Part shown: positions 1 through 20,445 of the stretch, piece by piece
Layout of the letters: each line of letters begins with the position of its first letter
Numbering within the stretch: position 1 is the first letter of the stretch
Source: Candidatus Bathyarchaeota archaeon
GTDB lineage: Archaea > Thermoproteota > Bathyarchaeia > Bathyarchaeales > Bathycorpusculaceae
DNA: 64,000 bases
Assembly (NCBI GenBank): GCA_963767735.1
Contig: CAVYES010000008.1
Coordinates: forward strand, 96,001-160,000
Reading direction: 5' to 3'
Notes under the pieces: model-generated
What the model saw: only the letters and a program-made list of their open reading frames with translations
The model's database searches: none
Told to the model about the DNA's origin: nothing
Position numbers and translations under genes: made by a program

Positions 1-2
1 GC

Positions 3-200
3 TACATCATTACAGACGAGGAAATGTTCAAAACCTTTAACATGGGCTGGGGGTTCGGCATAATCGTTGACAAAACAGAAATCGATAATGCCATGAATAC
101 GCTAGAGCAGGACAATGTAAAACCTGAAATAATAGGAAAAGTGACAGACAAACAAACCGTAGAAATAAAGCACAAAAACAAAATAATGACATTGACGTAA
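3..200 (+). CDS. purM: Phosphoribosylformylglycinamidine cyclo-ligase (AIR synthase), 3' end only
   Basis: Hand translation from nt 3: YIITDEEMFKTFNMGWGFGIIVD...IIGKVTDKQTVEIKHKNKIMTLT*; EMxxTFNMGxG is the PurM C-terminal motif; directly upstream of purS. Confidence 0.9.
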   Translation, partial: YIITDEEMFKTFNMGWGFGIIVDKTEIDNAMNTLEQDNVKPEIIGKVTDKQTVEIKHKNKIMTLT

Positions 201-258: not shown

Positions 259-510
259 ATGAAATACCGCGCTAAAATAGAAGTTAGCCTAAAACCAGGC
301 CATAGCAATCCTGAAGGGGAAACAATAGCTCGTTTACTCAAAGAACTCAGCTACAAGATACAAGCCGTAGATGTGAGTAAAGTTTACACCCTCACCTTTG
401 AAGCGCCAACATTGCAAGAAGCCAGCGCAAAAGCCGAAGAAATGAGCAAGCGCCTTTTGGCAAACCCAACCAAAGACAATTACACGATAAATGTTGAGGA
501 GCAGAAATGA
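259..510 (+). CDS. purS: FGAM synthase subunit PurS
   Basis: 83 aa, LKPG..NPEG and LLANP motifs; stop overlaps the purL start. Confidence 0.95.
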   Translation: MKYRAKIEVSLKPGHSNPEGETIARLLKELSYKIQAVDVSKVYTLTFEAPTLQEASAKAEEMSKRLLANPTKDNYTINVEEQK

Positions 511-2888
511 ACGCTAACCTCTACATCCCCCGCAAAGCCGGGTACGCGCTCTATGAAGTTGCAGTAGCAAAAGCCAGCGACCAACAACTCATCGAAATCA
601 GCAACGAACTCGCCTTAGGCTTAAACCTGCAAGAAATGAAGAGCATACAAGCCTACTTCAAAGCGGAAGGCAGAAACCCAACAGATGTGGAACTGCAAAC
701 CATCAGCCAAACATGGTCAGAACATTGCTACCATAAAACCTTCAAAGGAAAAATCCAAATCGGCGGCAAAGAAATCGAGAGCCTATTCAAAACCTTCATT
801 GCAAAAGTCACAAAAGAAATCAGGGCGCCGTGGTGCTTCAGCGTCTTCGAGGACAACGCGGGCATTGTCCGCTTCGATAAAGGTTATGGAATAGCAGCAA
901 AAGTTGAAACACACAACCACCCTTCGGCTGTTGAACCCTTCGGCGGCGCAGCAACCGGCGTTGGCGGCGTAATTCGAGACATCTTAGGTGTCTGGGCTGA
1001 CCCCATCGCATGCACAGATGTTTTAGGTTTCGGACCATTAGACTACGATTACAACAAGCTTCCTGCAGGAGTAAAACACCCAAAATACGTTTACATGGGC
1101 GTCACCGCAGGCATCAGCGCGTATGGCAATAACATGGGTATCCCAACAGTCAACGGAGCAATATACTTCGACGAAAGCTACACAGGCAACGTCACCGTCT
1201 ACTGCGGATGCATAGGTCTACTGCCACTAAACAAATTCACTAAAAATGCCAAACCAGAACACATAATCGTTTTAGCAGGCGGAAAAACAGGACGCGACGG
1301 CATCCACGGCGTCACTTTCGCCTCCGCCGAACTAACTGAAAAATCAGAAGAAATCTCCCGTCCAGCAGTGCAAATCGCCGACCCGATAGAAGAAGAAAAG
1401 GTCAAACGTGCGATAATTGAAATCCGCGACCTACAATTGGCATCGGCAACAACCGACCTTGGCGGCGGAGGCTTGTCCTCAGCAGTCGGCGAAACCGCTG
1501 AAAAATTCGATTGTGGAACAACCATCGAGCTTGACAAGGTACCGTTGAAATATCAGGGTTTGGCGCCATGGGAAATTTACATTTCAGAATCCCAAGAAAG
1601 AATGCTCATAACAGTACCACCTGAAAACCTCGAGCGGGTTATGGCGGTTTTTGAAAAAGAGGACGTTCAAGCCACAGCAATTGGCAAACTTACAACCGAC
1701 CGCCGCTTACAGCTTAATTTTAATGGTGAGAAAGTTGCCGACATGGACATGACTTTCCTGTTTAACCCCTGCGAAAGCACGAAAACGGCAACCATCGAAA
1801 CCCCAAACTTCACGGAACCAGAGTTTCCCCAGCCAGAAAACCTAACAGAAACCCTTCTGCAGCTTCTTTCGGCTCCAAACATTGCCAGCAAAGAAAGCGT
1901 CATACGCACTTACGACCATGAGGTAAAAGGAAACACCACTCTCAAACCCCTACAAGGAGAGTACGCTGGACCAAACGATGCAGCTGTGTTGAAACCCCTT
2001 GATGATTCATGGAAAGGCTTAGTTATTTCGTGCGGAATGAACCCGAATTACGGAAAAATTGATGCTTACTGGATGGCTGCTTCAGCTATTGATGAGGCAG
2101 TTAGAAACAACGTTGCCGTCGGAGGAAGAAGAATTGCGCTGCTGGATAATTTCACGTGGGGAAACCCTGAGAAGCCAGAGCGTTTGGGCTCGCTGGTAAG
2201 AGCCTGCGAAGCATGCTATGACTATGCCAGGGCGTATAAGACCCCGTTTATCTCGGGAAAAGATAGCCTCTACAACGAGTCCCCTCTTGGACCAGTTACG
2301 CCGACACTTCTAATTACCGCCATAGGCATAATCCCCAACATTCAATTCACCACCTCGATGGATTTGAAAGCAACAGACAACCTGCTCTATATCATCGGGG
2401 ACACATTCAATGAGCTGGGCGGTTCGGAATACTATAAGCTCAAAGGCCACTTAGGCGCAAACGTGCCCAAAGTGAAAGGAGCCAAAGCTAAACGCACATT
2501 CAGAACCGTCACTAAAGCCATCGATTCAGGCTTAATCAAATCCTGCCATGACCTTTCCGAAGGCGGGTTAGCGGTGGCGACGGCGGAGATGGCGTTTGCA
2601 GGCGGATACGGCTTAGAGTTAGATTTAGATAAAGTGCCATGCAAAGAGTTAGCGCGAAATGATTTTGTATTGTTTTCAGAGTCAAACAGCCGCTTCCTTA
2701 TGGAAGTCTCAGAAACTGACAGGCAGGAATTCGAATCTTTGATGAAGGGCAAAGGCTGTTGCCAAATTGGCAAAGTAACCAAAGACCAGAAACTGCTCAT
2801 CCACGGATTAAACCAAAAAATAGTTGTGGACGCCTCACTTTCAGAGTTGCGGCGTAGTTGGAAAAAAACATTAAGCGGGGAATCCTGA
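507..2888 (+). CDS. purL: FGAM synthase subunit PurL
   Basis: QTWSEHCYHK, KVETHNHPSAVEP, GRDGIHG, SESQERM and ISGKDSLYNE motifs. Confidence 0.98.
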   Translation: MNANLYIPRKAGYALYEVAVAKASDQQLIEISNELALGLNLQEMKSIQAYFKAEGRNPTDVELQTISQTWSEHCYHKTFKGKIQIGGKEIESLFKTFIAKVTKEIRAPWCFSVFEDNAGIVRFDKGYGIAAKVETHNHPSAVEPFGGAATGVGGVIRDILGVWADPIACTDVLGFGPLDYDYNKLPAGVKHPKYVYMGVTAGISAYGNNMGIPTVNGAIYFDESYTGNVTVYCGCIGLLPLNKFTKNAKPEHIIVLAGGKTGRDGIHGVTFASAELTEKSEEISRPAVQIADPIEEEKVKRAIIEIRDLQLASATTDLGGGGLSSAVGETAEKFDCGTTIELDKVPLKYQGLAPWEIYISESQERMLITVPPENLERVMAVFEKEDVQATAIGKLTTDRRLQLNFNGEKVADMDMTFLFNPCESTKTATIETPNFTEPEFPQPENLTETLLQLLSAPNIASKESVIRTYDHEVKGNTTLKPLQGEYAGPNDAAVLKPLDDSWKGLVISCGMNPNYGKIDAYWMAASAIDEAVRNNVAVGGRRIALLDNFTWGNPEKPERLGSLVRACEACYDYARAYKTPFISGKDSLYNESPLGPVTPTLLITAIGIIPNIQFTTSMDLKATDNLLYIIGDTFNELGGSEYYKLKGHLGANVPKVKGAKAKRTFRTVTKAIDSGLIKSCHDLSEGGLAVATAEMAFAGGYGLELDLDKVPCKELARNDFVLFSESNSRFLMEVSETDRQEFESLMKGKGCCQIGKVTKDQKLLIHGLNQKIVVDASLSELRRSWKKTLSGES

Positions 2889-3703
2889 TGAACCAAGAAG
2901 AAATCAGAGTCTGCGTTTTGCGTGTCGGAGGAACCAACTGCGATGCAGAAACTGAGAGGACTTTTTTGGAGTTAGGTGTCCATGCGGAGACTTTGCACGT
3001 TAACGAGCTGATAAAACGCAAAAACCTGCTTGATTATCAGATGCTGGTTTTTCCAGGCGGCTTCTCATTTGGCGATTACGTGCGTTCAGGCGTCATTTTT
3101 GCACGGTGGCTCAGCGCCAAATTGGGCAGGGAGATTGAAACTTTTATTGATGAAGGCAGACCGATTCTGGGCATATGCAACGGCTTTCAAATACTGGTTG
3201 AATATGGTTTGCTTCCGGGCTTCGAAGGAATGAGCGCTTATCCAGAGGCGACATTGACAACTAATGAGCCAGCGGGCTTCAAGTGCCAGTGGGTTTACCT
3301 CAAAAACGAGAATAGAGGAAAATGCATGTTCTCAAGCAAAATCCCAGCTGGAAAGGTGGTGAGGATGCCGATTGCCCATGGAGAAGGCAGGTTGCTTTTC
3401 CCCAAAGAGAAGGAAAAGGAAATACTTGCAAAATTAATCGATAATGACATGGTGGTTTTCCGTTACTGCGACAAAGGCGGCAACGTTGCCGACGGCAAGT
3501 ATCCAGCAAATCCGAACGGCGCCTTTCATGACATCGCAGGCATATGTAACAAGGAAGGAAACATTTTCGGTTTGATGCCTCACCCAGAAAGAGCACTTTA
3601 TTGGTGGCAGCAACCTGACTGGACACGCCAACAGCAAATGCTACAATATGGCGACGGAAAACTAATCTTCCAAAGCATAATCGACAAACTAACCCAGAAA
3701 TGA
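2888..3703 (+). CDS. purQ: FGAM synthase glutaminase subunit PurQ
   Basis: GTNCD, PGGFSFGD, GICNGFQ, AHGEG and MPHPER motifs; the ATG at 2888 overlaps the purL stop (TGATG). Confidence 0.97.
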   Translation: MNQEEIRVCVLRVGGTNCDAETERTFLELGVHAETLHVNELIKRKNLLDYQMLVFPGGFSFGDYVRSGVIFARWLSAKLGREIETFIDEGRPILGICNGFQILVEYGLLPGFEGMSAYPEATLTTNEPAGFKCQWVYLKNENRGKCMFSSKIPAGKVVRMPIAHGEGRLLFPKEKEKEILAKLIDNDMVVFRYCDKGGNVADGKYPANPNGAFHDIAGICNKEGNIFGLMPHPERALYWWQQPDWTRQQQMLQYGDGKLIFQSIIDKLTQK

Positions 3704-4734: not shown

Positions 4735-5649
4735 CTAGTAGAGAACTGTTAAATCCTTAGCGTAGGGCAAGCCTGCACGGGCACCCATCGCCGTAACGCT
4801 TCTTGAAGCTACAAAATTCCCCAGTCGTCCGCATTCGTAGAGGCTTTTTTTGGTAATTAAGCCGTAGAGGAAGCCTGCGCAGAAAGCGTCCCCAGCGCCA
4901 GTCGTGTCGACTGCTTTAACTGTGAAGGGTTCAATTCTTAGTTTCTGCTCGCCGTCTGTAACGTAGCAGCCTAGGCTGCCAAGTTTAACCGCGACAATTT
5001 TAACTCCCAGTCCAATCATTAAATCTGCGCCCTCACGGTAATCAGCTTCTCCTGATAAAAGCTCAAGTTCAACAGTGTTAGGTATCAAAACGTAAGAACT
5101 CCTAATTAATGGCTCAATAACCGCAAAACCCTTCTGTGCATACACCGAGCCAGGGTCAAAGCTGATTTTCACGGAGTTAGGTAGAGCAGCTAAGAGCTTT
5201 TTTTGTGCACGGAAAGATTTTTCGCCGACAAAAGAGGATTGATGAAGAAATTTTGTCTCAGAAAGATAACTGTAATTTATTTCTCGAGGTTCGATTGTAT
5301 CGTTGACGCCTGAGTTAACGTATAGCGCTCTTGCGCCTTTCTTATCCACGAAGCCCATTACTGAACCGCTTTTTCCATTTTTTGCCTGAATAATGCCGCT
5401 GGTGTCGACGCCTTCATTGCTAAAACAGTCAATTTGCAGTTTGCCTTCACGGTCATTGGCTACTTTGCCTATGAAACCAACTTTGCAACCGAGCCTTGCC
5501 AACCCCACAACAGTGTTTGCGGCGGAACCGCCACATGCTTCCGTATAGTCTTCTATGAAGCTTTCTTCTTCAGCGCCCGCAAGCCTTTCGGTCTTGAAGA
5601 GCATATCAACGTTAAGTGCGCCAAAACCTACAACATCAAACTTAGTCAT
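4735..5649 (-). CDS. PfkB/ribokinase-family kinase (EhaT-like)
   Basis: GGSAAN and DTTGAGDAF PfkB signatures; ATGA overlap with the upstream ftr-like gene. Confidence 0.92.
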   Translation of the reverse strand: MTKFDVVGFGALNVDMLFKTERLAGAEEESFIEDYTEACGGSAANTVVGLARLGCKVGFIGKVANDREGKLQIDCFSNEGVDTSGIIQAKNGKSGSVMGFVDKKGARALYVNSGVNDTIEPREINYSYLSETKFLHQSSFVGEKSFRAQKKLLAALPNSVKISFDPGSVYAQKGFAVIEPLIRSSYVLIPNTVELELLSGEADYREGADLMIGLGVKIVAVKLGSLGCYVTDGEQKLRIEPFTVKAVDTTGAGDAFCAGFLYGLITKKSLYECGRLGNFVASRSVTAMGARAGLPYAKDLTVLY

Positions 5650-6554
5650 GGAAACAACTCCTTTAACAATATTTTGTGTTCACCTAGTTTGCCTCCGTAG
5701 TTGCCAGCGGAAACTTTTACAACTCCGTCAATTCCGAGTATTGCTTCTATCCCGACTTTGGTGGCTTCTTTTACAGCTGCTAAGGACACGCCGTTATAAA
5801 CTATTTCGGCTATGTAGCCGACGTCTTCAGGCACACGAGATTCTTTGCCTATCTTTTTCTTTAGAGAAGGACAATAAAGATGATTTGTTGTTGGACCAAT
5901 TTTTGGAAAATGTGTTTCAGGCTTTGAGCCGGCAGAGCAGACGTCAAAGGGCGTAACTACACCAGTCACATTGTGTATGGCAACTAATGCTTTTTCTCCT
6001 GCTTGCTTTAGGGCTTGTTTTGTTTTGCACAGAACCCAAAAGTTTCCGCCCATGACACCGCGTGCATAGCCCAAGTACCGTTCAATAACGAAGTCAGGAA
6101 CCATCAAGGGAACAACGATAACCTCTCTGCCGTCGCGTTTTTCAACCCACTCGTACCCATCACCGCAGTGCCCAACAGTCTCCATCATGTCCATTTTACC
6201 TTCAGCTTTGGGCAAAGTGTCGTATACGGCGGTGAATGGCTTGACTAGGATGTCTTGGCGGATGCGGTAGGAAAGCTCAGTCTCAAATTTTCGCAGTGAT
6301 TGTTCAAAGGTTTTTTTGGGGTTTATTTCTCCCCAGAATTGCAGTATTGCACCTGATCGTTTGTCTGGGGTTTCTTTTTGGCTGAGGTATTTTTCGACGC
6401 CTCCTTCTGTTCTTCCGATCACAACAGATGGCGTTGCCGTTGAATCCTCAGCAGCCTTATGCAAAGTTTCTTCATCGTCTGCTGTGACGATTACTCGACA
6501 ATAAATTCCAGTGAAAGCTTCTGCGTACGTGTCCTCTATCTGCGCTTTTGGCAT
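5646..6554 (-). CDS. ftr: Formylmethanofuran:tetrahydromethanopterin formyltransferase homologue (Ftr paralogue, EhaS-like)
   Basis: IEDTYAEAF, E.GVEK...ETPD.R, GDGYE, GV.GGNF, SAGSK, PTTN and VSAGNYGGKLG are Ftr motifs. Confidence 0.9.
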   Translation of the reverse strand: MPKAQIEDTYAEAFTGIYCRVIVTADDEETLHKAAEDSTATPSVVIGRTEGGVEKYLSQKETPDKRSGAILQFWGEINPKKTFEQSLRKFETELSYRIRQDILVKPFTAVYDTLPKAEGKMDMMETVGHCGDGYEWVEKRDGREVIVVPLMVPDFVIERYLGYARGVMGGNFWVLCKTKQALKQAGEKALVAIHNVTGVVTPFDVCSAGSKPETHFPKIGPTTNHLYCPSLKKKIGKESRVPEDVGYIAEIVYNGVSLAAVKEATKVGIEAILGIDGVVKVSAGNYGGKLGEHKILLKELFP

Positions 6555-7637
6555 TTATCCAAGCCCCCCAATGGCTACTCCTCGCACCTTTTTTCTGAAT
6601 TCGCTACTTTCTTTTACTATTGATTCCATATTTTGCGCTGTTAATATTTGAGCGTTAGGCAACGCGTTGGGATACAAATCTGTGAGCTTTTTTACCAAAA
6701 CATCGTCGACTCCGTATTTTTTGAGCGTACCATAACTCCAAGAGCAAATGGCGCTTATTGTTTTTTCTCTTCCAAACCTGCTGAACAAGTCAGCAATCAC
6801 TGCAGTAACAAGATTGCTATCGGACAAAACGGCTACTGCAGCATTTTTTACTGCGTAACTGTTTCCGTTGAAAGATATTGTTAAGCCTTCGTTGGCTCGA
6901 ACCAGTTTGAAGGCTTCCACGTCCGTTATGCTGTCGCCCACATACATCACATCCGCTAAATCTGCGCCCAAACGCTTCACGATATCCCGGATTGCCTCCG
7001 CTTTCTGTTCCCCGCCAACCGTTACCACGTCGATAAGGAATTTGCCGATGAACATCTTGGGGATTTCAATCCAGAAAACCTCGTCAAAACGCCGAATAAC
7101 CGTTTGGTCACTGGCTGAAAAATCTTCGATGTTTTTTGCGGATGGCGGGATATCAATTAAATGCATTTGCGCAATTTCTTGTGCTATTTCTTTTAGGCGA
7201 TCTTTTTCTTTCGGAGTGATGGCGCATTTGTCGAGGCTCACTTTGGTGCAGTAAGTGTTTTTGTATGGGAAGTCGAGGGCTTTGCATAGGGCTTTGATAT
7301 AGTGTTGGTAGCTTGTGCTGACGATAAAGGCATCAGTTATGGCTTGTACATGGTGAAGGGTAGCCTGGCTGTTAGCAATTAACATGATGTTTTTGGATGA
7401 GAAATCTTCCATTTGCCGGTCGGTTATGCCGTATGCTTTGAAGAAAGGCAAAATGAGCTTTAAGGTGCTACCGGCAGAGTAACCTGGTTTGTGCAGAATA
7501 TCCGCCAATACATCATCATATTTGCTGATGTTAGCGAAAAGTTGGTCTCCATTTGGAATAAAATTTGCTGCTAACTCATAGGCATTGTCGTTTTTTGAGA
7601 TTGGCCCTTCGCAGTCGGATATGAAGATGCGCTTCAC
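6555..7637 (-). CDS. HAD-superfamily protein, EhaR/COG4030-like
   Basis: FISDCEGPISKNDNA (motif I variant), IVSTSY (II), K (III), YVGDSITD (IV), SFNGN.YA; its GTG start overlaps the purD stop. Confidence 0.8.
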   Translation of the reverse strand: MKRIFISDCEGPISKNDNAYELAANFIPNGDQLFANISKYDDVLADILHKPGYSAGSTLKLILPFFKAYGITDRQMEDFSSKNIMLIANSQATLHHVQAITDAFIVSTSYQHYIKALCKALDFPYKNTYCTKVSLDKCAITPKEKDRLKEIAQEIAQMHLIDIPPSAKNIEDFSASDQTVIRRFDEVFWIEIPKMFIGKFLIDVVTVGGEQKAEAIRDIVKRLGADLADVMYVGDSITDVEAFKLVRANEGLTISFNGNSYAVKNAAVAVLSDSNLVTAVIADLFSRFGREKTISAICSWSYGTLKKYGVDDVLVKKLTDLYPNALPNAQILTAQNMESIVKESSEFRKKVRGVAIGGLG

Positions 7638-9049
7638 GCCTTGCGCCTCAAACTGTCCATGTGGCGGATGCTTTTGGCTATATGCTGCTTTGAAGCAATG
7701 TCGTTTCGGTTCCAGAGTGCTCCGCCCGTGATTGCTTTGGCGCCTTCAAGGCTGATTTGCCGTGCTTCCTCAATGCTGCCTCCGATGCCTAAGATGCCGA
7801 CGGCGCGTGATTTGAGAGCGTAATTTTTGCCGTCTCGGATTTCCATTGAGCCGGGGTAAATGCGAATATTGTTACCGTATTTTGCTATTAGCGCTTGAGC
7901 CTTTGAAAGATCAATGGGACTGTTAATTGCTAGCTTATCAATTTTGTTTGGGAAAATGTCTGCGTAGCCTCCATAGTCCGAGGGAACTTTGTAAGTTAAA
8001 ACCGAGGCAGCGTTCTTCAATTTGACATTCGCTAGGCTGCCCTCTACCATTTCAAAGCATAACTCAACAAAATCATCCTGAATTAGCGGTAACAAATTTA
8101 TTATTTCTGGGTCGCCTGGACGACTGTTTATCTCAAGAACCTTAATGCCCTTGGCCGTATGCATAAAAGCAAGATATAATGGCACGCCTTTGAGCGCGGT
8201 GTCATCTTTGAATTTGGAGCTCCAGCCCCTGAAAATCTTATTAGCCAACGCCAACTCCTGCTCACGATCAGACACTCTTAAGAAGGGCAGTTTGTCGTCG
8301 GCGCCTTTGTATGAACCCATGCCCCCAGTGTTTGGACCCTTATCATCGTCGAATGCGCGCTTGTAATCCCGTGTGTCAGGGAGCGGCAGGAAATGTTTGC
8401 CGTCGCAGAAAGCCATGAAGCTGGATTCTTCCCCGTCGACCTTCTCCTCGATTATGACGCTACCATATTTGAAATTGGACATGAAATGCTCAAACAACTC
8501 TTCACGGTTGGCAAAATGGTCACCCCATACACCGACGCCCTTTCCTAAGGCTGGCTTATCAGGCTTCACCACTGCCTCGTTATCCAGCTCGTCTAGATAA
8601 CGGTACACATCGGCTTTAACGTCTCCATGATCCTTGTAGTCGGCTGGATTAAAAACCTTAAAGCGCGGGTTTGCCTCTGGCGCGATCTGAGCGAAAAGTT
8701 CTCGCTGTTCAACCTTGCTTACTTCTATTGCGTACCGTTGCTTGGGGCAAATGACTGGTATTCCTGTCCGTTTCTCAAGTTGGTCGCGGACGCCTTCTAT
8801 TATGGGTTTTTCTGAGCCAACAAGCGCGAAGTCGATTTTGTCCTTGTTTGCTTCTGCGAACTTGCAGATTTCCTCCACATCAAGGTTTGGTATGACGGCG
8901 TGTTTTGTCGCTTTCTCTGCGTTGAAAGGGTTGCACTGCTTGTCGGCGATGTAGAGTTCTACGTGGTATTTTGTGCTTTGTAGAAGGGCATCGACCATGG
9001 CGACTTCTCTTGCGCCGTAAGAAATGACCAGTACACCGATTTTTTCCAT
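7634..9049 (-). CDS. purD: Phosphoribosylamine--glycine ligase (GAR synthetase)
   Basis: GAREVA, VVKPD...GKGV, IEE..GEE.S, DYKRAFDDDKGPNTGGMGS and EINSRPGDPE motifs. Confidence 0.95.
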   Translation of the reverse strand: MEKIGVLVISYGAREVAMVDALLQSTKYHVELYIADKQCNPFNAEKATKHAVIPNLDVEEICKFAEANKDKIDFALVGSEKPIIEGVRDQLEKRTGIPVICPKQRYAIEVSKVEQRELFAQIAPEANPRFKVFNPADYKDHGDVKADVYRYLDELDNEAVVKPDKPALGKGVGVWGDHFANREELFEHFMSNFKYGSVIIEEKVDGEESSFMAFCDGKHFLPLPDTRDYKRAFDDDKGPNTGGMGSYKGADDKLPFLRVSDREQELALANKIFRGWSSKFKDDTALKGVPLYLAFMHTAKGIKVLEINSRPGDPEIINLLPLIQDDFVELCFEMVEGSLANVKLKNAASVLTYKVPSDYGGYADIFPNKIDKLAINSPIDLSKAQALIAKYGNNIRIYPGSMEIRDGKNYALKSRAVGILGIGGSIEEARQISLEGAKAITGGALWNRNDIASKQHIAKSIRHMDSLRRKA

Positions 9050-9109
9050 CGAGATACACCGTTATGCATAGAGAGTTGAGGAATCGCTTAATTTGCTTTG
9101 CTCAAACGG

Positions 9110-10591
9110 TTATGGCTGAACTTCGGTTGACTCGTAAATTCTTGTTTTTTCCTCGTAGCCTTCAAGGAATTTCTTTTTCATTGCGTCAGCCATTTTTTGT
9201 GCACATGGGGTTGGATACTTTCCTGTGATGCAGGCTAAACATAGCTGGTCTTCTGTTTGACCTGTAGCTTTTATTAATGCCTCAATGGATTGGTAGCATA
9301 CGTCGTCTGCGCCTATGATTTTAGCTATTTCCTGGGCGTTGTGTCTTGAGCCGACAAGTTGCCCGTAGGTTGACATGTCAATTCCGTAGAAGCAGGGTCC
9401 AATAATTCGTGGAAAAGTAACGAAGACGTAAACTTTTTTGGCACCTGATTTTCGCAGTTTATCGATAATTATTTTGGTTGTGTCGCCTCTGACTATAGAG
9501 TCTTCGGTTATTATAACTCGTTTTCCAGTAACTTTTGATCCTAAAATGTTGATTTTTTTATCGATAGTTGAGAAACGCTCAGCGTTCAGAAGTATGAAGG
9601 CTCGTTCGGTAACGTAACGGTGCCGCCTTGACGCCCGTTCCCAACGTAAACCTGATGCCTCATGGACGCCCATGGCTGGGTCATCGCCTGTTTCAGGCAC
9701 CGACAAAATTATGTCACTGTCCTTCACTATTTCGGGATATTCCTTAACGATGTTTCTCCCGAAGTCTTCACGAATCTCATAAACATATTTGCCGTTAAAC
9801 CTTGAATCAGGTCTGGAAAAATAAGCGTATTCAAAAGCGCAGAAAGCCTGATGGGGATTTGGAATAACTTGTATGCGTTTGAAGCCGTCCTTTGAAACCG
9901 TGACTAATTCGCCTGGTTTCAGTTCGAAATCTCTTACAAAACTGTTCATGTCTAAACTTACGGTTTCGGAGGAGAAAGCGTAGGTTGCTCCAGCGGGGTC
10001 GTGTCCAGCGCAGAGCGGTTTTATTCCAAGCGGGTCTTTGAAGGCGAAAAAGTCGCCGTCTCCAGTTATGCCTGTTACGGAGAATGCGCCATCTAAGCTT
10101 TCCATGACGGAGCGAACCGCGGAGGTTAAGTCTTTGCTTTGTTTAAGTCCGAGAAGCAGCTTATGACACACTAAGTCAGAGTCACAGCCGTACTGAAAGT
10201 CTTGGAAGTTTTCAGCCATTTCTTTTTTCAGTGGAGATGTGTTGACTATGTTGCCGTTAAATGAGAGGGCAAGTTTTATTCCGTTTTCGCTGGCGGTAAC
10301 TGGTTGAGTGCCTTGAATAAGTGAGGCGTCATCACATTTACCTGATGTGGTGTATCGAACGTTGCCGATGCCTATCGAACCCGGAAGCTGCCTGAACCAT
10401 TCCCGTATAGCCTCAGTTTTTAGTTTCGGAACCAAATCCAAGTTTTTGTATTCAAAAAATTGCTTGTCGCTGTACGTTAAAAAGCCGTGTGATTGGTGAC
10501 CTCGATGGTTTTGGGCTCGGAGACCCCAGTAAACATACGGAAAAACAGGTTGGTTTTCATAATTTATTACGCCAAAGATACCGCAGCCCAT
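9110..10591 (-). CDS. purF: Amidophosphoribosyltransferase
   Basis: MGCGIFG N-terminus, HRG, RYTTSG, FEYAYFSRPDS, EDSIVRG PRPP loop, and Fe-S cysteines (CAFE, PCFYGID, CLAC). Confidence 0.96.
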   Translation of the reverse strand: MGCGIFGVINYENQPVFPYVYWGLRAQNHRGHQSHGFLTYSDKQFFEYKNLDLVPKLKTEAIREWFRQLPGSIGIGNVRYTTSGKCDDASLIQGTQPVTASENGIKLALSFNGNIVNTSPLKKEMAENFQDFQYGCDSDLVCHKLLLGLKQSKDLTSAVRSVMESLDGAFSVTGITGDGDFFAFKDPLGIKPLCAGHDPAGATYAFSSETVSLDMNSFVRDFELKPGELVTVSKDGFKRIQVIPNPHQAFCAFEYAYFSRPDSRFNGKYVYEIREDFGRNIVKEYPEIVKDSDIILSVPETGDDPAMGVHEASGLRWERASRRHRYVTERAFILLNAERFSTIDKKINILGSKVTGKRVIITEDSIVRGDTTKIIIDKLRKSGAKKVYVFVTFPRIIGPCFYGIDMSTYGQLVGSRHNAQEIAKIIGADDVCYQSIEALIKATGQTEDQLCLACITGKYPTPCAQKMADAMKKKFLEGYEEKTRIYESTEVQP

Positions 10592-11554: not shown

Positions 11555-12979
11555 TTATGGTTGCCATTTCTCTATGAGATACTTGGGTATCTCGCTGCTG
11601 TCGCGTGGTCCAACTTGGACTTTCCAGCCGCTAAGTTCTTCAATTTCGCCGCTTATGCGTGAGGCTTTGCCGGGGATGATGATTTTGCGATGCTTTACTT
11701 TACTTTCTATGCCTGAGACTTTGATTGCGTCTGCAACGCGTTCAGCTGTTAGTTTGCGTCCTGCGACTCCGCTGTCTATGGCTGAGCCTTCTGTTTCGAC
11801 GACGATTAGATATGCGTTGATTTTGTTGCTGTCTAAGTCTGAAGCTACAGTGTAATATGTTAGGGCGAAGTTTGTTGTGAACATGACAGGCGAGTTTTCG
11901 TCTGGGGTTCCGAACACTTTGAGTCCTGGAGCGACTGCAACGGGTTTGCGTGGGTCAGTGTAAATGTTTTGTCTTAGCACAGTTATTGGTAGCAGTGACC
12001 AGCCGTCGTTGCCGTGCATTACAAGTATGTCAGCGTACCGCACAATGAGCATTGCTGCTAAGTACGCTTCACGCCATTTGATGAGATCCTCAGCTGTTTC
12101 ACCTTTTCCTACCCAAGTAACCATCGGAACACCCATCAATGGGAATCCAGCAAGTTCTTCTCCTTCTTTTGTTGCGGCTCTTCGCAGCATCGTAAAGTTG
12201 TTAATTGTGTCGGGTAATCCTTCGTTTGCGAATGTGCCCGGGTCTAAGACCAAGTCTGTTACACCATAAGCCATCAATGTTTTGACAAGTGAAACCAGAG
12301 TGCTCATGTCGTTTGGTGCAGAAACCACCAGTGGGCAACTGTACATTAATGCGAGTTCCGCCATGTCTTTCCAGTTTTCTTTAGTAGCCGCGTAAAGTAG
12401 AGGTCTTGCTTTTGGAGCAGCCATCAACCCAGCTTCCAGAACAGTAGAGTTTAATGAACATAATACCAGGGGCAACTTGGTTGAGTCAGCAACTTTCTTC
12501 ACTGTTGCCTTGAATTTTTCGGCGTCGCCTGATGTTGAGCGGATAGCAATCATATCCAATTTCAGCGTGTTGCCGATGTATTCGAAAGTGTAGTTTTCTG
12601 TGCGCTTTACTCGGCTTTCAACTTCCTCCGCCGCCATTTCGTCAGTTACGTCAATTGCTATGGCTGTAGGGTTTACATAGGTGAATTCATGGCGGTACAT
12701 TACCAGTTTTCCGCCGAGTTTGCGTGCTTTGTCTCCGACGCCAACAATTACTTCTTTAACTGCGGGTTTCATCAGCTCTTTTAGTTTGCTGTAGGCTTTC
12801 TCGTTTTCTTTCTTTAGCAGCGGTGGACATTGGTCAATGGTCATTTCGCGGTTGACAATTTTTGTGGCGAAAGCCATGCAGTTATCGACGCCGCATTCTT
12901 TACAGTTAATTTTTGGAAGAAGCTTGTAAACGTCTATGGGGCTTAATTCTTTTAGTCCAGCTTTCTTTTTCTCAGTCAT
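11555..12979 (-). CDS. cdhE: ACDS corrinoid Fe-S protein gamma subunit
   Basis: LPKINCKECG..CMAFA..CP Fe-S motif, RQNIYTDPRKP, TTNFALTY, VGPRDSS. Confidence 0.97.
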   Translation of the reverse strand: MTEKKKAGLKELSPIDVYKLLPKINCKECGVDNCMAFATKIVNREMTIDQCPPLLKKENEKAYSKLKELMKPAVKEVIVGVGDKARKLGGKLVMYRHEFTYVNPTAIAIDVTDEMAAEEVESRVKRTENYTFEYIGNTLKLDMIAIRSTSGDAEKFKATVKKVADSTKLPLVLCSLNSTVLEAGLMAAPKARPLLYAATKENWKDMAELALMYSCPLVVSAPNDMSTLVSLVKTLMAYGVTDLVLDPGTFANEGLPDTINNFTMLRRAATKEGEELAGFPLMGVPMVTWVGKGETAEDLIKWREAYLAAMLIVRYADILVMHGNDGWSLLPITVLRQNIYTDPRKPVAVAPGLKVFGTPDENSPVMFTTNFALTYYTVASDLDSNKINAYLIVVETEGSAIDSGVAGRKLTAERVADAIKVSGIESKVKHRKIIIPGKASRISGEIEELSGWKVQVGPRDSSEIPKYLIEKWQP

Positions 12980-12992
12980 GCCAATCGACTCC

Positions 12993-14228
12993 TTAAGCTT
13001 TCACCGTTACCCAATCAGCAAATTTGGAAGCATCTGCTTTTTTGCCGCTGGTCAAGTAGTTTGTTACGTCTTTGAGTGTTTTTACGGCTGCAGGATGCAT
13101 CATCATGAATAAGTCAACGCCGGCAAGCAGAAGTGTCAGTGCAGTGGTTACTTCCCAGAGTGGACCTCGAAGCTCTCGTGGTTCCCATTCAGCAGACATC
13201 TTGAGCCAAGCTTCGCGTGCTGCCCAAGCGTTGGTTGTACCTGAAGACATCGGGTGAGCCAATTCTGCGTCGCCCATTAATCCGCTGAGCCTTGCTCGCT
13301 CCATGTTAGTGAATGCATAATCTAAACCGTAGCCTAACGCGGCAGTGGTTAAGTCCATAACGATGTCTTCTCTGCCTAAGAAGTCGTAGAGTCGCCGGTT
13401 AAGTTCCCTTGCCAAATTCAAGTCCATAGGAGTGAATGACAGTGCTGCATGCCCGTTCTTTTTAACGTATTTTGCGCAGCGTTCAACATCCATATCTCGC
13501 GTTATTGAGCTGATGAGGAAACGTTCACCTGGGAAAGCTTCACAGATTGCCTCGAAAACATCAGCGTCTTTAACCGGGTCTCCGCAGCCGCCGATAACTA
13601 GCGGAACATCAACGGCTTGCAGAACCTTTTCAACCGTTTTCACCGCGTCTTTTGGTGTAGCATCTTTGAGTAGGGGGTCAATACTGATTAAGTGAATTGT
13701 AACCATGTCTGCCTTGAACTGGTCTACTGCAAGTTTTGCCCATGCTGCTGGGTCGCCGACTACTTCTTTTACGTGCATTTTGACTGCTTTGCTAAGTGGA
13801 ACTTCCATGTCGAAGACGTCAAGAGTGATTACTGGTTTGTGAGTGGTCGGTCGCTCAAAATTGTAGAATGCGGGGGAAACTTCTCCGCCTATTGTGAATG
13901 ATCTTCCGCGTGTTCCGCCTTCCCTTTTGGTTGCCCCAAGCTTTACTTCAGTTATCTTGTTTGGATAGGTTTCGACTGGAGGTAGGAAAGCTGCCTGCAG
14001 CATGGCGGTTGGTTTTCCGCCTGCAACTGCCGCTGGAAGCTTTAATTTGGGCATTATTTTTCCAGCCATACCGGGCTCAAAAATGATTTCTAAGTCTTTG
14101 ACGTCCATTTGGAAGTCTTGTAGCTCGATTTCTTGAAATTTCGCAAGCGCTTCAAGCAGATCGTTGCTTAGTTTTAATCCTTCATTTTCTTTCTTTTTGT
14201 CTGTGTCGTTTTGGGGCGTAGAAATCAC
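12993..14228 (-). CDS. cdhD: ACDS corrinoid Fe-S protein delta subunit
   Basis: EVKLGAT..GGTR, TTAALGYGLDY, ERARL..L.GD..L..P, NAWAAREAW, MMMHP. Confidence 0.96.
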   Translation of the reverse strand: MISTPQNDTDKKKENEGLKLSNDLLEALAKFQEIELQDFQMDVKDLEIIFEPGMAGKIMPKLKLPAAVAGGKPTAMLQAAFLPPVETYPNKITEVKLGATKREGGTRGRSFTIGGEVSPAFYNFERPTTHKPVITLDVFDMEVPLSKAVKMHVKEVVGDPAAWAKLAVDQFKADMVTIHLISIDPLLKDATPKDAVKTVEKVLQAVDVPLVIGGCGDPVKDADVFEAICEAFPGERFLISSITRDMDVERCAKYVKKNGHAALSFTPMDLNLARELNRRLYDFLGREDIVMDLTTAALGYGLDYAFTNMERARLSGLMGDAELAHPMSSGTTNAWAAREAWLKMSAEWEPRELRGPLWEVTTALTLLLAGVDLFMMMHPAAVKTLKDVTNYLTSGKKADASKFADWVTVKA

Positions 14229-15640
14229 CGTTTGTCTTTGTCATCTTTGACTGTTGTTATGATTACTTTGTTAGCGTAGATTTTTGCGTCTTTAAGTATG
14301 ATTTTGAATCCGCCGGCCATTATTGGCAGTGATGCAGCTGTGGCAACGGGCATCATTGTGCCTGCTGCTTCTTCGTTAACTTGTATTGCTTGTGCTTCAG
14401 GTGTTGCTGGTGCTTCTTCAGCTGCCCATCTTGCTACTATTGGGTGATTCTTAGCTTTCAGGAATGCTTTGAGTTCATCTACGTTCTTTGCGTCTTCTTC
14501 AGTTGCAATTTTGTCAACGAGTTCTTTCGGAATAAAATCTTTGACTTTTTCTTTAACTTCTTTAGGTACCCAAACTATGCGGTTCCATCCGCCGTCTGCT
14601 GCGAAGAATTTCTTGCTTCTCATGTATTCGATGGACATTCCGTGGAAACCGTCGATTTGTCTTCCGCCTGCTGCTGAATCTGCGATTGTGCTGAATGGTA
14701 AGCCGTTTACGGTTGCGCCTTTGAAGCTTCTGTTGACCACTGCTAATCCGTCAACTTCTGGTATGTAGAAGGTTACTGCTTCGAAGCATCCGCACGAAGT
14801 GTGTGGGTGATCAAACGCTGTGTAGAGCCAGACTTGGTTGACTTCGCCCATGCTGCGTTTCTTAGCAGCTTCGTTGACGCCTGAGAATTCGCCTTTCTCC
14901 GCGTTGAGCATTTCACCTCTTGGTATTGCGAAGACTGGACCTTTGGGGTCTATGCTTGCTGAGGCTTTGCCGTCAAACCAGCTGATGGCACCGCAGTTGC
15001 TGTATCTTTGTGGTGTAATTACGCAGACGTGGCTTGGTGCAAATGATTGGCATAGAGCACAGCCGTAGAATGTGTCAACATCTTCGTCTTTGAGACCTCT
15101 GGCTTTTGCGTCGCGTGATTCGTATGCTTGGATTGCTTCGGGGGTCATTTCGTCTAGTTTTGCTGGGTCTGTTATGAAGGTAATTTGGACTTTTTCGATA
15201 ATTGGCAGTTCGCTCTTGAATAGTCTGTAGAGAACTTTGCCTATTGGTTCAAAGCTGTTTAAGCCTTTTTGGAATGATTTTTTGCCGATGCGAATCCAGA
15301 TGTCATAACGTTGGTTTAGATGCATGAAGCCTTCGATGTAGTTTAGGTAGCCGTGAATGCGTCTTTCAATGACACCTTCGAGGCCTGCATCAAGTTTTGC
15401 GCCTGCAGCTTCAACAAGAATGCCGAATGGGTATGCGCCGCCTTCCTTCAGGTCTTTTAAATCTGGGCCGATGATGGTGATTTTTCCATCTTCGATCTCG
15501 TCCATGGGTTTTACTTTTGCTAGTTCAAACTTTTGTTTGACTGTTGGGCCGCCGAGTTCTACTTGCATGTCGTTTCTTCGGATGCGTTCTCCTTCGTAGA
15601 TTACGCCTACATCAACGGGTATATCTTTAAACATTGACAT
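14225..15640 (-). CDS. cdhC: ACDS acetyl-CoA synthase beta subunit
   Basis: YEGERIR, EGVIERRIH, FYGCALCQSFAP, HTSCGCFEA A-cluster ligands. Confidence 0.97.
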   Translation of the reverse strand: MSMFKDIPVDVGVIYEGERIRRNDMQVELGGPTVKQKFELAKVKPMDEIEDGKITIIGPDLKDLKEGGAYPFGILVEAAGAKLDAGLEGVIERRIHGYLNYIEGFMHLNQRYDIWIRIGKKSFQKGLNSFEPIGKVLYRLFKSELPIIEKVQITFITDPAKLDEMTPEAIQAYESRDAKARGLKDEDVDTFYGCALCQSFAPSHVCVITPQRYSNCGAISWFDGKASASIDPKGPVFAIPRGEMLNAEKGEFSGVNEAAKKRSMGEVNQVWLYTAFDHPHTSCGCFEAVTFYIPEVDGLAVVNRSFKGATVNGLPFSTIADSAAGGRQIDGFHGMSIEYMRSKKFFAADGGWNRIVWVPKEVKEKVKDFIPKELVDKIATEEDAKNVDELKAFLKAKNHPIVARWAAEEAPATPEAQAIQVNEEAAGTMMPVATAASLPIMAGGFKIILKDAKIYANKVIITTVKDDKDKR

Positions 15641-15643
15641 TTT

Positions 15644-16186
15644 TTAGTTTCCTCCATTAAATTTTGAAGTCATTACTTTGAGGTTTGCAGCCCATTCTTC
15701 AAGGGTTGCGTTTGGGAAAGACCAGCTTGCATGTGGATGAAACAAGTTGTCTAAAGTCATGGTTTTGAGGTCTGGAGCAAAATTTTTGAGTCCACAGAGC
15801 ATTAATGATTCCATGGGGTAAGGCAGCCCTACCACCAAAACCAAGTCGGGATGACCCTTGCCATCGAGACCCTGCCATTCAGGATCAACAAGTCGGTTGC
15901 CTATGTCCATCGCAGACATGAATCCTGCTGGTTGGTAGCCGCGTTTTAGGAATTCGCCGACCATATGGGCTGTGGCCACTACCGGCACTTTTGAAGCGTT
16001 AGCGAAATCAATGAGGTATTCGATTAGCAGTTTGCCTTCCATGTACCTTTCTGTTGCATAGCTGCCTACGATAAGGATTGGGCGGGATGCTTTTTTTATC
16101 ATTGCTACTGCTACTTCGGGTTTCGTTATTTGGTTTGCTTTTTTAGTTGCGGATATTTCTGCACATTGCCAAGGTTCACATGACAT
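15644..16186 (-). CDS. cdhB: ACDS CO dehydrogenase epsilon subunit
   Basis: MIKKA.RP.L.VG, DPEWQGLDG.G..DL, ASWSFPN. Confidence 0.95.
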   Translation of the reverse strand: MSCEPWQCAEISATKKANQITKPEVAVAMIKKASRPILIVGSYATERYMEGKLLIEYLIDFANASKVPVVATAHMVGEFLKRGYQPAGFMSAMDIGNRLVDPEWQGLDGKGHPDLVLVVGLPYPMESLMLCGLKNFAPDLKTMTLDNLFHPHASWSFPNATLEEWAANLKVMTSKFNGGN

Positions 16187-16192
16187 ATCTTA

Positions 16193-18540
16193 TCACTCCT
16201 TCATTTTACGGATCATTCTTGGAAGCAACGTAGGGTCAGGAATTACTGTTTCTTTCCAGTCGTGCGCTTCAAGTATCTTTGTAAATTCGTCTTTAAGGGT
16301 CATTGGAACATCAGCCATTGTTCTCACGAAGAGATGCAGATCCTGCGGCATGCATCCGTAATGGCGTTTGTGTAAGTCGACATAGTGGCTTAGTTTTATG
16401 CTTCGTCCTTTCCAGGTGTCGTTTGGTCTTATGCATAGTTTTGCGATTGAGACCATTGCTTCTTGTGGGGTTTCAACTGTCTGGAACAGGTGCTCGGGTG
16501 CTGGACCAACGTTGACTTTGTCGCCTGTGCGGGCATCGTAAACTTCCCAATTTTCAGGCTTATCTTCTCTGCCAAGTAGCATTCGACGGTATTTTACGCC
16601 GTGTGGACCAACCAACACTGGCACGCCTAAGCGCCAGAATCCCGCTGCGATTGCCGCTGCTTTCTGTGAGTATGCACCCCAGGCTAAGCCGACTGCGCCA
16701 AGACGGTTATAGATGTAATCAGCGATTTCCTCATAGTTGCCTCTTAATGGACGCTTAGCGAAGATGTTTGCAACTTTTATGGCTGCGCCCGCAATGTGGC
16801 TGTTTGCCACGCATGAGCCTACGTTTAGAACTCCTCCAGCTTCGAATCCGCCTGGGAATTCTTCGTAGAGTGTTTTGCCTTCGCTGTTGCGGTAGCTGCC
16901 CGCTGACATGGCTGCGCATCCTGAGACTACAACTATGTATCTTCTGCTGGCGAATTCTCTGCATATATCGTAGACGTCTTTGCCGCCCTTTGGATAGTTA
17001 CTGCAACCCACTACTGCAAGGATGCCGGGGATTTCTCCAAGGACAATGGGGCTACCTACGTTTCGGATTTCAACATCTTGAACTGCGCCTCTTCCGCATC
17101 GGCACAGGTTATTTTCAGCAAGCATGAATTTCTCGCCGGCTTTCACTATCATGCTGTGCACCATTAGTTTCTGCGGGCAAGCTTCTTCACATCTTCCGCA
17201 TCCGACACAGTACTCGTACAAGTCAGTTAGTGGAGCCATGTCGCCTTCTCCGGCTGCTTTTATTGCTTGAGGAAGCTTGAGGTCTTGTGGACAGCTTCTT
17301 CGGCATAAGTTGCATTGTCTGCAGGTCTTAGCGAGTTGTTTGATCTCGTCGAAACTTGGGAGATTCTTCATCTTCTTGCGGATTGGAGCAACTTGCTGTG
17401 CCACTCTGACTGCGACTTCGCCGACCAATTCTGGGTCAAGGATTAAAACGCCGGGGATTTGCCGCTTACAAGGTCAGCAACGATTTCGTCCGCCGGGTCG
17501 TCTGTGCGATTCTTGAAGCCCATGCAATTCTTTTCTGATGCGGCAATGACTGGAGCGTGAACTTTCTGTGCTTCGTCAAAAACGTCTGTACGGACACATT
17601 GCTCGTCGAGAACGACGACATCCGCGAATCCTCCTCTTACGAAACGTAGTTGCCAGCTGATTGGACCGATGATTCTTCCACGGTTATAATATCTGGTTAT
17701 GTCATGTGCTGTGCAGCATAAGCCGACTACTTCGATTTTATCGTCAACTTTGTGGTCTTTTGCATAGTCGATGATTCCGACTGATGGAATTACGTTGTGT
17801 CCAATAGCCATGATGACTGGCTTAGACAAATCCACGCTGCCTATACCTAACGAGACGAGTGGTGCTTCAGGTTCAGCTTTGGGCATACCTAAAGTAGAAA
17901 CTTGAGCAATGTCACCAACTTCCATGCCCACGTGATCAATCATGCCAACGTGGAATGCCTTTGATTCAAAATCAAGATTGTTGCCTTCTTGGCCTGTGTG
18001 GGCTACTGCAAGGCATTGAGTAATTTCTTTTTCAGCGTATTCTAAAACGTCGTCAAGGTCGCCGAGTGTTTCAGGCTTTATTCCTGTGACTAAACGGGTG
18101 ATGGGTGCTTCAACTTTTATGTTTAAGCCGCCGATGTCTAAGGGGAATCTGCGACCGTACTTTTCAATTAGGTGATGGATCATATGGCGTGAGTGAGCGG
18201 TGTGGGTGGCAGATCCGATGCAGCAGGCTAAAAGCACGATACGAGAGGATTGAGCAGCCATGTCTATACCGCAAGCTCCGCGTTTTCCAGCTGTTAAATC
18301 GCATTTTCCAAAAGTGCAAAGACAACAAAGGTCACAATCGGGCATGTAGAAAGGCTTGTACCTGGCGAGAAGCTTCATGTCCCAATCTCGCAGGGTACTC
18401 ATGGAAGGCATTGGGGTTGGACCCATCGGTTCAGTATAGTTATCGTTTATAACCTTGCCAATGGACAATTCAAAATTTTTAATGAGACCGCTATTAGTCT
18501 GCATTTCGTCAATTTTTACATTAACGTTTTTAGTCGTCAA
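16193..18540 (-). CDS. cdhA: ACDS CO dehydrogenase alpha subunit, split by a 1-nt deletion near 17459
   Basis: N-half has CDLCCLCTFGKCDL, GHN, GLCCTAHD, DEQC; C-half has 2x[4Fe-4S], GCSNY, GSCVANSH, WGAYSQK. Adding one A to GGCAAATCCCC restores SGKIPGVLILDPE. Confidence 0.95.
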
Positions 18541-19442: not shown

Positions 19443-19460
19443 TTGATAAACCTCAATATA

Positions 19461-20240: not shown

Positions 20241-20445
20241 AATTCTCACAGTTAACAAGACTCTCGTTTCAACATTAATTTACGTTTCCTTGAGCGCGAA
20301 AGAAAACCCATGACAAAAACAGTTGGTTTCGTTGGCACTGCAGAGCAACGATGAAAAACAGGCTCCGCTTTTAGTGTTTACATACACGCTATCCCTGTCT
20401 CCTACTTTGTTAGCCGCTTTTCCGTATTTTGCACTACGTCATCTT

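Follow-up and report, generated by a model that had tools for sequence, protein, structure and literature searches.

The locus studied here lies at the start of a 64-kb stretch of DNA (the window, positions 96,001 to 160,000 of contig CAVYES010000008.1) from assembly GCA_963767735.1 of a Candidatus Bathyarchaeota archaeon. Five genes form a single run on the minus strand: purF, purD, a gene for a haloacid dehalogenase (HAD) protein, a gene for a homologue of the formyltransferase Ftr and a gene for a PfkB-family kinase. The HAD protein is called EhaR, since its close relatives carry the JGI name 'energy-converting hydrogenase A subunit R'; the Ftr homologue is designated Ftr2. Read on the minus strand, the stop codon of purD and the GTG start codon of the EhaR gene share the letters GTGA, the TAA stop of EhaR is followed directly (0 nt between) by the ATG of Ftr2, and the Ftr2 stop and pfkB start share ATGA; the gap between purF and purD is 58 nt. 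Convergent with this run are purS, purL and purQ for formylglycinamidine ribonucleotide (FGAM) synthetase (step 4 of de novo purine synthesis), with purM preceding purS. When coordinates, domains and junctions were re-read, the five-gene run, its gene families and its overlaps stood as described in the initial annotation, and so did the co-location of steps 1, 2, 4 and 5 in a window where neither PurN nor PurT was found. RNA-library contigs from two peat metatranscriptome runs, both of the same study, overlap PfkB, the junction of EhaR and purD, purD itself and purF, with a likeness of 90-99%.

Based on the sequences of this locus and its relatives, we propose a module, made up of EhaR, a formyltransferase and in most cases PfkB, that probably replaces PurN and PurT in the conversion of glycinamide ribonucleotide (GAR) to formylglycinamide ribonucleotide (FGAR). 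The module is assigned to this step because it and PurN/PurT exclude one another, the two share a slot in the genome, its formyltransferase is interchangeable with a PurN-like enzyme, and it is a member of a purine operon.

Table 1. Genes of the purine locus in the window (positions are those of the window unless a contig or locus is given; ORF, open reading frame; AIR, aminoimidazole ribonucleotide).
Feature	Positions	Strand	Basis and proposed role
purF, amidophosphoribosyltransferase (step 1)	9110-10591	-	TIGR01134 310.7 bits over full length, below equivalog cut-off of 350; GATase_7/6 domains
purD, GAR synthetase (step 2)	7634-9049	-	GARS_N/A/C domains; TIGR00877 240.9 bits, below cut-off of 288
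EhaR-family HAD protein, 360 aa	6555-7637	-	Weak HAD Pfam matches; proposed 5'-phosphate handling on ribosyl acceptor
Ftr2, 302 aa	5646-6554	-	PF01913 and PF02741; proposed GAR (or GAR-riboside) formyltransferase
PfkB-family kinase	4735-5649	-	PF00294 175 bits; proposed 5'-kinase of formylated riboside
purM 3' end (AIR synthetase, step 5)	1-200	+	AIRS and AIRS_C domains; whole ORF at C8:95094-96200 (L138:9095-10201)
purS	259-510	+	TIGR00302 70 bits, above cut-off
purL	507-2888	+	TIGR01736 694 bits, above cut-off
purQ	2858-3703	+	NF002252 319 bits, above cut-off

The assembly is a metagenome-assembled genome (MAG) of the Bathyarchaeia of 3.04 Mb in 10 contigs, 94.9% complete. By profile search, PurN was without a match anywhere in this genome, and the PurT model matched only weak ATP-grasp proteins (at most 47 bits); the absence of purN and purT that the initial annotation had noted for the window was thereby extended to the assembly. 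The formyltransferase domain of PurH, specific for aminoimidazole carboxamide ribonucleotide (AICAR), was likewise not found in the genome. Two tandem PurP (DUF1297) genes are located at C7:109925-111564 (L006 and L007); such a pair is common in Bathyarchaeia regardless of the type of GAR formyltransferase. FwdA (793 bits) and Mch (388 bits) are encoded, and a second Ftr copy, found to be canonical (Ftr1, see below), is located on contig 5. With FwdA, Mch and Ftr1 present, both possible formyl donors, N5-formyl-tetrahydromethanopterin (formyl-H4MPT) and formyl-methanofuran, exist in the genome.

We examined the distribution of the module in 151 Bathyarchaeia genomes at least 85% complete, which were searched for EhaR, PurN, PurT, Ftr, PurD and PurP; counts were tallied by hand. 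EhaR was detected in 65 of the 151 genomes and PurN above its cut-off in 22, with an overlap of zero. A PurT-like protein (224-303 bits) was found in 10 genomes, all devoid of EhaR. When the 132 genomes with purD are sorted by candidate for the formylation step, 62 have EhaR, 22 PurN, 10 the PurT-like protein, 35 only a sub-threshold PurN-like protein and 3 none of these. Genomes of families f10, f14, f16 and f19 that were devoid of all three candidates, as well as genome G014, were also found to be without purD. In family f11, all three solutions occur, each in different genomes. Two Ftr matches were typical of the EhaR genomes, the weaker one beside EhaR, and most other genomes had one.

The candidates also share a position. 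Among the 22 PurN genomes, all of them EhaR-less, 19 have purN no more than 1.4 kb from purD, and the PurT-like gene is beside purD in 4 of 10. A single slot after purD is thus occupied by purN, purT or the module. The module therefore resembles PurN and PurT in the proposed step, in its place beside purD and in a mutually exclusive distribution (exceptions, G115 and G001, are considered below). It differs from them in that Ftr2 is unrelated in sequence to either enzyme, two extra proteins (HAD and kinase) are needed, and the proposed donor is an H4MPT-bound formyl group instead of 10-formyl-folate or formate plus ATP.

The sub-threshold PurN-like proteins include a subfamily of 270-315 aa with an internal insertion, an intact SGSGTN loop and scores of 90-105 bits, below the PurN cut-off (L112, L113 and L115; families f18, f15 and f24). 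This subfamily is the sole GAR formyltransferase candidate in the 35 purD-bearing genomes mentioned above, and the N-terminal SGxG[ST]N loop, which in PurN we take to bind the 5'-phosphate of GAR, was intact in 4 of 4 members aligned.

The gene arrangement was found to recur. Among 20 loci fetched from different families of Bathyarchaeia, EhaR is followed by Ftr2 in 16, with purD directly upstream of EhaR in 15 of these 16 and convergent purSLQ genes frequent. Alignment of EhaR identified 80 named loci, 73 of them labelled Bathyarchaeia or Bathyarchaeota. Where a Bathyarchaeia-labelled locus extends 1.5 kb or more upstream, the gene directly before EhaR is purD in 59 of 62; where it extends 3.5 kb or more downstream, Ftr2 is within 2.5 kb after EhaR in 48 of 56 and PfkB is present in 46 of 56. 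The purD-EhaR-Ftr2 arrangement is thus not due to chance. At some loci purD and EhaR stand by themselves, and in four of the five such genomes searched the Ftr2-PfkB pair was retained on another contig; as split modules keep these pairs, purD with EhaR and Ftr2 with PfkB are the stable units. Taken together with the counts for two further lineages given below, these results bore out the expectation of the initial annotation that the trio would be linked repeatedly to pur genes and anti-correlated with purN and purT.

Some loci depart from the common order. Two Bathyarchaeota loci (L032:5221-6594 and L034:4248-5621) have an insertion after purD, a gene for a family-4 glycoside hydrolase that separates it from EhaR. 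At L027 (G040:C1:1527439-1528203), in a single-contig genome, the EhaR match begins only at residue 106 and no purD is nearby; this copy of the module may be truncated or decaying.

Ftr2 was next compared to characterized Ftr proteins. Both lobes of Ftr are matched over the full length of Ftr2 (PF01913, 150.4 bits; PF02741, 180.4 bits). The protein scored 337.7 bits with the subfamily model NF002554, above the cut-off of 297, and 235 bits with TIGR03119, below the cut-off of 292.6. Against the solved Ftr structures 1M5H, 1M5S and 1FTR, Ftr2 scored 162-179 bits compared to 311-317 bits for the copy on contig 5. These far higher scores identify the contig-5 copy as the canonical Ftr1 and the window gene as the divergent paralogue Ftr2. 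Two Ftr trees were built from full-length cluster representatives, and in both an Ftr1 clade of 38 members was split from the Ftr2 clade with 99-100% SH-like support; the Ftr2 clade of the second tree comprised 25 rows at 95% support. The initial annotation had raised the prospect of a second, canonical ftr elsewhere in the genome and of a separate clade for the window copy, and both were found. By source name, the Ftr2 clade includes sequences of Methanocellales, 'Candidatus Methanospirare...', 'Candidatus Syntropharchae...', Hydrothermarchaeota, Altiarchaeota and 'Candidatus Pyrohabitans', two of which scored just 190-212 bits to the solved Ftrs. The clade agrees with an Ftr2 group described by Chadwick et al. 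(2022, PMC9012536) in anaerobic methanotrophic archaea (ANME) of groups ANME-1 and ANME-2a/b, Archaeoglobales, M. kandleri and Methanothermobacter.

Residue E250 of Ftr2, invariant in 26 Ftr2 sequences, aligns with the glutamate of the Y-E-I-V motif of 1M5H, the position of the catalytic glutamate (presumably Glu245 in M. kandleri numbering). In FhcD, an oxyanion role of the catalytic glutamate is described for Glu252 (PMC6926001). Ftr2 therefore has in common with the Ftrs of M. kandleri (1FTR, 2FHJ), A. fulgidus (1M5H) and M. barkeri (1M5S) both lobes and the aligned catalytic glutamate. The chemistry of Ftr, transfer of a formyl group between N5 of a pterin and a primary aminomethyl group, is of the same kind as that proposed for Ftr2. 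By contrast to Ftr, Ftr2 forms a separate clade, scores about half the bits, has a 5-residue insertion at 76-80 and clade-specific residues (W74, R48, R99, C130 and E213), and is located in a purine operon; the acceptor proposed for it is GAR or the riboside of GAR, whereas that of Ftr is methanofuran. Structure prediction of an EhaR-Ftr2 complex gave a score of 0.00 (mark, 0.32), which weighs neither for nor against binding.

EhaR is most closely related among solved structures to AF1437 of Archaeoglobus fulgidus (PDB 1Y8A, E 6e-31), a structural-genomics protein. The predicted model of EhaR (pLDDT 92.8) has a HAD fold with large caps, and its nearest fold neighbours are 1Y8A (TM 0.79/0.90), then phosphoserine phosphatases and ThrH. 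In 24 EhaR sequences from three lineages, D8, E10, S107/T108, K212 and G234-D-S-I-T-D239 are invariant, such that the nucleophilic Asp of HAD motif I, the Ser/Thr of motif II, the Lys of motif III and the acidic pair of motif IV are all kept. The residue two positions after the motif I Asp is invariantly Glu (D-x-E-G-P) in EhaR and AF1437; this motif is common to the two proteins, which are just ~25-35% identical.

The best NCBIfam match of PfkB is ribokinase (TIGR02152, 168.4 bits, below the cut-off of 299.65), followed by ribose-1-phosphate kinases at 125-135 bits, and no equivalog cut-off is reached. Alignment of PfkB to 3hj6 revealed the GAGD motif and an N-terminal N-x-D that is ribokinase-like.

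Two types of PurD, mutually 24-33% identical, were distinguished in the Bathyarchaeia sample. The window PurD is 51-81% identical to EhaR-linked PurDs and 24-33% to the canonical type; scores with TIGR00877 were 220-272 bits for PurD of EhaR genomes and 300-505 bits for that of most PurN/PurT genomes. The divergent type was considered as a sign of an altered substrate and dropped, as low-scoring PurD also occurs without EhaR (family f15 and genome G029) and, exceptionally, a canonical PurD adjoins EhaR in G025. It is treated as lineage history, not as evidence for the function of the module.

The presence of two PurP genes and a ribokinase-like PfkB allows a different scheme, in which Ftr2 serves the H4MPT pathway only as a second Ftr isoenzyme, an ordinary ribokinase (PfkB) and sugar phosphatase (EhaR) feed ribose-5-phosphate and phosphoribosyl pyrophosphate (PRPP) to PurF, and the missing enzyme is a formate- and ATP-dependent paralogue of PurP. 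PurP-like clusters of unknown function were noted by Brown et al. (2011, PMC3261824), and the cdh operon for carbon monoxide dehydrogenase/acetyl-CoA synthase (CODH/ACS) adjoins the pur operon, both of which would suit such a scheme. PurP copy number, however, tracks neither the absence of PurN and PurT nor the presence of the module: two tandem copies were also found in genomes with PurT (G016, G064, G091 and G005) and with PurN (G053), while one copy was found in module genomes G011, G013, G007 and G025 and none in the module genomes of family f8 or in G027. Furthermore, the scores of Ftr2 place it far from the characterized Ftrs (162-179 bits, compared to 311-317 bits for Ftr1), and a role in PRPP supply would not make the module exclusive of PurN and PurT. 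We regard this scheme as improbable.

Further evidence for a role of the module in GAR formylation comes from loci in which Ftr2 is missing. At 4 of the 20 sampled Bathyarchaeia loci, a divergent protein with a Formyl_trans_N domain was found in place of Ftr2. In family f8 and genome G027, which are without Ftr2, this protein of 278-330 aa is encoded between purD and EhaR or beside purD; these genomes are also without PurP, which suggests folate-type C1 (one-carbon) chemistry. The best NCBIfam match of this PurN-like protein is PurN itself (51-77 bits, compared to a cut-off of 150.1), and the eight PDB entries that match it best are all GAR transformylases. The catalytic Asn/His (N-x-H-P) and Asp motifs of PurN are kept. 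By contrast, all 5 module-linked proteins read SGRD[EA]AAR (SGRDRDAL in L023) in place of the SGxG[ST]N loop, which each of the 8 aligned PurN proteins, canonical or sub-threshold, has intact. These comparisons show that either Ftr2 or a divergent PurN-like enzyme can fill the formyltransferase slot.

A trio of PfkB, the PurN-like protein and EhaR was also detected at loci labelled Methanomassiliicoccales and Deltaproteobacteria. In the genomes concerned, the module PurN-like gene is the only match to the PurN family that is not Fmt-like, and PurT was not found. For the class Thermoplasmata, to which the Methanomassiliicoccales-labelled genome belongs, 101 genomes were sampled. An EhaR-like gene was present in 21 of these, and none of the 21 had PurT or a PurN match above 77 bits; of the 80 genomes without EhaR, 74 had PurN above the cut-off (including G239, which is flagged as unpublished), 5 had matches of 126-149 bits and 1 had none. 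Of 12 EhaR-like loci fetched from this class, 9 have the PurN-like gene as a direct neighbour and 1 has it at a distance of 2.7 kb. The class of the Deltaproteobacteria-labelled loci was sampled with 18 genomes at the same completeness, including the two labelled MAGs. EhaR was found in 18 of 18, PurN above the cut-off and PurT each in 0 of 18, and the PurN-like gene was on the same contig as EhaR and within ~1 kb in 15. The module and PurN/PurT are thus complementary in three lineages: Bathyarchaeia, the Thermoplasmata class and the Deltaproteobacteria-labelled class.

At the Deltaproteobacteria-labelled loci, a gene for an AI-2E family transporter is located directly after EhaR (L084:4638-5789 and L099:2152-3219). 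The neighbours of these loci, of the Methanomassiliicoccales-labelled loci and of the loci with only purD and EhaR were also considered as a clue to function; glycosidases, MFS and AI-2E transporters and NUDIX proteins were found, and the neighbours were judged uninformative.

The trio resembles EhaR-EhaS-EhaT at the end of the eha operon of Methanothermobacter, as had been noted in the initial annotation. The likeness is upheld by the JGI name of the HAD relatives and by the account of EhaS as Ftr-like and EhaT as ribokinase-like in Kaster et al. (2011, PMC3087415), where the two proteins are considered unlikely to act as a formyltransferase or a ribokinase. Matched by description and naming, the same three families (HAD-like, Ftr-like and ribokinase-like) are present in both systems. 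They differ in that the Methanothermobacter genes are linked to a hydrogenase operon and have no assigned role, whereas the window trio is joined to purF and purD. Going by their names, EhaR, EhaS and EhaT would serve an energy-converting hydrogenase as accessory subunits. In Methanothermobacter their genes are co-transcribed with ehaA-Q (PMC3087415), and the JGI family name points the same way. Yet no hydrogenase gene was recognized beside the module in the window or among the annotated neighbours in related loci, where the upstream neighbour is purD in 59 of 62; the module also occurs in the Deltaproteobacteria-labelled class and in Methanomassiliicoccales-labelled genomes, and all three proteins belong to soluble-enzyme families with catalytic residues intact. 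We give a hydrogenase role hardly any credence.

The linkage of the Methanothermobacter trio to the co-transcribed Eha hydrogenase genes instead of pur genes (PMC3087415) would better suit a module that acts on some other amine-bearing ribosyl or sugar compound, such as in the synthesis or salvage of methanofuran, methanopterin or another cofactor, and that merely travels with pur genes while GAR is formylated by another enzyme. Consistent with this possibility, no purD adjoins the module at the Methanomassiliicoccales- and Deltaproteobacteria-labelled loci, the module PurN-like enzymes are without the canonical GAR phosphate loop, and the nearest characterized folds to EhaR are phosphoserine phosphatases. 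Such a role would leave unexplained the restriction of the module, in three lineages, to genomes devoid of canonical PurN and PurT, the presence of purN or purT in the very slot next to purD, and the fact that, of all solved structures, those of PurN are closest to the substitute formyltransferase. We therefore consider action on another compound unlikely, and favour the GAR to FGAR step.

Published surveys of purine genes are in agreement with this assignment. Brown et al. (2011, PMC3261824) report no PurN or PurT in two Archaeoglobi, in M. kandleri and in four species that are printed as Methanomicrobiales, the named ones of which are Methanobacteriales. Several archaea prototrophic for purines were thereby shown to be without a recognizable GAR formyltransferase. 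ANME-1 is also described as without PurN and PurT by Chadwick et al. (2022, PMC9012536), with Ftr2 treated in another section and the two not connected in those sections. The taxa reported to be devoid of PurN/PurT (Archaeoglobi, Methanobacteriales, M. kandleri and ANME-1) agree with those reported to have the divergent Ftr2 (PMC9012536, PMC3261824). A 2023 survey lists purT in all Methanococci examined and not in M. kandleri (PMC10025317). For Methanobacteriales, Archaeoglobi and Methanopyrus, our argument draws on the cited portions of PMC3087415, PMC3261824 and PMC9012536. In the literature searched, the GAR formyltransferase of archaea without PurN and PurT is still listed as unidentified; our full-text search, with supplements and most subscription journals outside its coverage, found no paper that links Ftr2 or EhaRST to GAR formylation.

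How the module might act can be outlined from the families of its members; we infer what its substrate and formyl donor are and in which order its steps follow. The minus-strand operon would cover de novo purine synthesis from step 1 to step 3, with GAR made by PurF and PurD. In the likeliest route, EhaR would remove the phosphate from GAR, and Ftr2 would formylate the resulting glycinamide riboside by the Ftr reaction run in reverse. The formyl group would be transferred from N5-formyl-H4MPT (less likely from formyl-methanofuran) to the H2N-CH2- group of glycinamide; N5-formyl-H4MPT is suggested as donor because the glycinamide amine would take the place of methanofuran in the reverse reaction. 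PfkB would then restore the 5'-phosphate with ATP, at a cost of one ATP, the same as for PurT. Where PfkB is missing, one may speculate that EhaR works like a mutase, keeping the phosphate bound as an aspartyl phosphate until the formyl group is in place and then giving it back; the Glu two residues after the nucleophile could serve this purpose. The riboside route, which the initial annotation had already suggested, would fit the pairing of purD with EhaR and of Ftr2 with PfkB, the order of the genes and the loss of the phosphate loop from the PurN-like enzymes. A partial analogy is provided by the HldE kinase and GmhB phosphatase of ADP-heptose synthesis, in which a PfkB-family kinase and a HAD phosphatase change the phosphorylation of sugar intermediates in one pathway; their substrates are different and no formyltransferase is included, and hence this is an analogy only. 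In either form, as a dephosphorylated riboside or with the phosphate parked on the HAD aspartate, the route is tentative and may well not be the one used. The linkage to eha in Methanothermobacter would be sensible if Eha replenishes formyl-level C1 units that are withdrawn for biosynthesis.

Several observations weigh against the proposed role or against parts of it. The host genome is 94.9% complete, and related genomes are not independent, so that the counts overstate independence. Those for the Thermoplasmata class and the Deltaproteobacteria-labelled class are restricted to the module, PurN and PurT. Co-occurrence was also seen: G115 combines EhaR and Ftr2 with a PurN-like protein of 100.7 bits whose phosphate loop is intact, G001 has EhaR and a match of 175 bits to the PurT family, and ANME-2a and 2b are reported to have both Ftr2 and PurN (PMC9012536). 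PfkB is adjacent in 4 of the 12 Thermoplasmata-class EhaR-like loci and not in the other 8, and five genomes of this class with the pair of PurN-like protein and EhaR are without a close PfkB homologue. As PfkB is missing in some lineages, the kinase step cannot be universal, and the riboside route leaves these lineages unexplained. The Glu at the position of the second Asp of HAD motif I suggests that EhaR may be no plain phosphatase. Formyl-H4MPT, by which N10-formyl-H4MPT is meant, is in a view relayed by Brown et al. (PMC3261824) not a competent formyl donor for purine synthesis.

With these points taken into account, the locus and its relatives lead to the prediction of three concrete genes for GAR formylation and of a modular system in at least three lineages. 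It is conceivable, although we would not presume it, that an EhaR-type HAD protein, an interchangeable Ftr2 or PurN-like formyltransferase and usually PfkB, acting on the riboside or on GAR with its phosphate parked, represent a third and widespread way of formylating GAR. If the proposal is true, C8 of purines would be derived directly from the H4MPT-bound C1 pool, and a gap in purine synthesis known since 2011 in Archaeoglobi, Methanobacteriales and Methanopyrus, and later in ANME-1, would be filled, as it would in Bathyarchaeia, in Thermoplasmata of the Methanomassiliicoccales type and in one bacterial class. There would also be a reason for ehaRST to ride on the operon of the anaplerotic Eha hydrogenase. 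The annotations of EhaR, EhaS, EhaT and Ftr2 in hundreds of genomes would need to be corrected, and a reaction now missing from the metabolic models of methanogens, ANME and Bathyarchaeia would be supplied.

Other features were observed around the locus. The archaeal cdh operon is located directly upstream of purF on the minus strand (11555-18540) and includes two genes of the CdhD family, CdhC, the CO_dh epsilon subunit and two ORFs (16193-17428 and 17443-18540). Each of these two ORFs matches part of the Prismane/CO-dehydrogenase family and they are adjacent, and thus the alpha subunit looks split or frameshifted. After the cdh genes, two CooC/ParA-like P-loop ATPases and a CofC-like guanylyltransferase (F420 synthesis) are encoded on the minus strand at 18678-21129. 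Just before the window, at L138 (C8:86000-96300), there is a polyphosphate cluster of Ppx/GppA, PPK2 and an 852-aa fusion of CHAD, metallophosphoesterase and Ppx. The sole tRNA gene of the window specifies tRNA-Leu(GAG) and is located at 39457-39542 on the minus strand.

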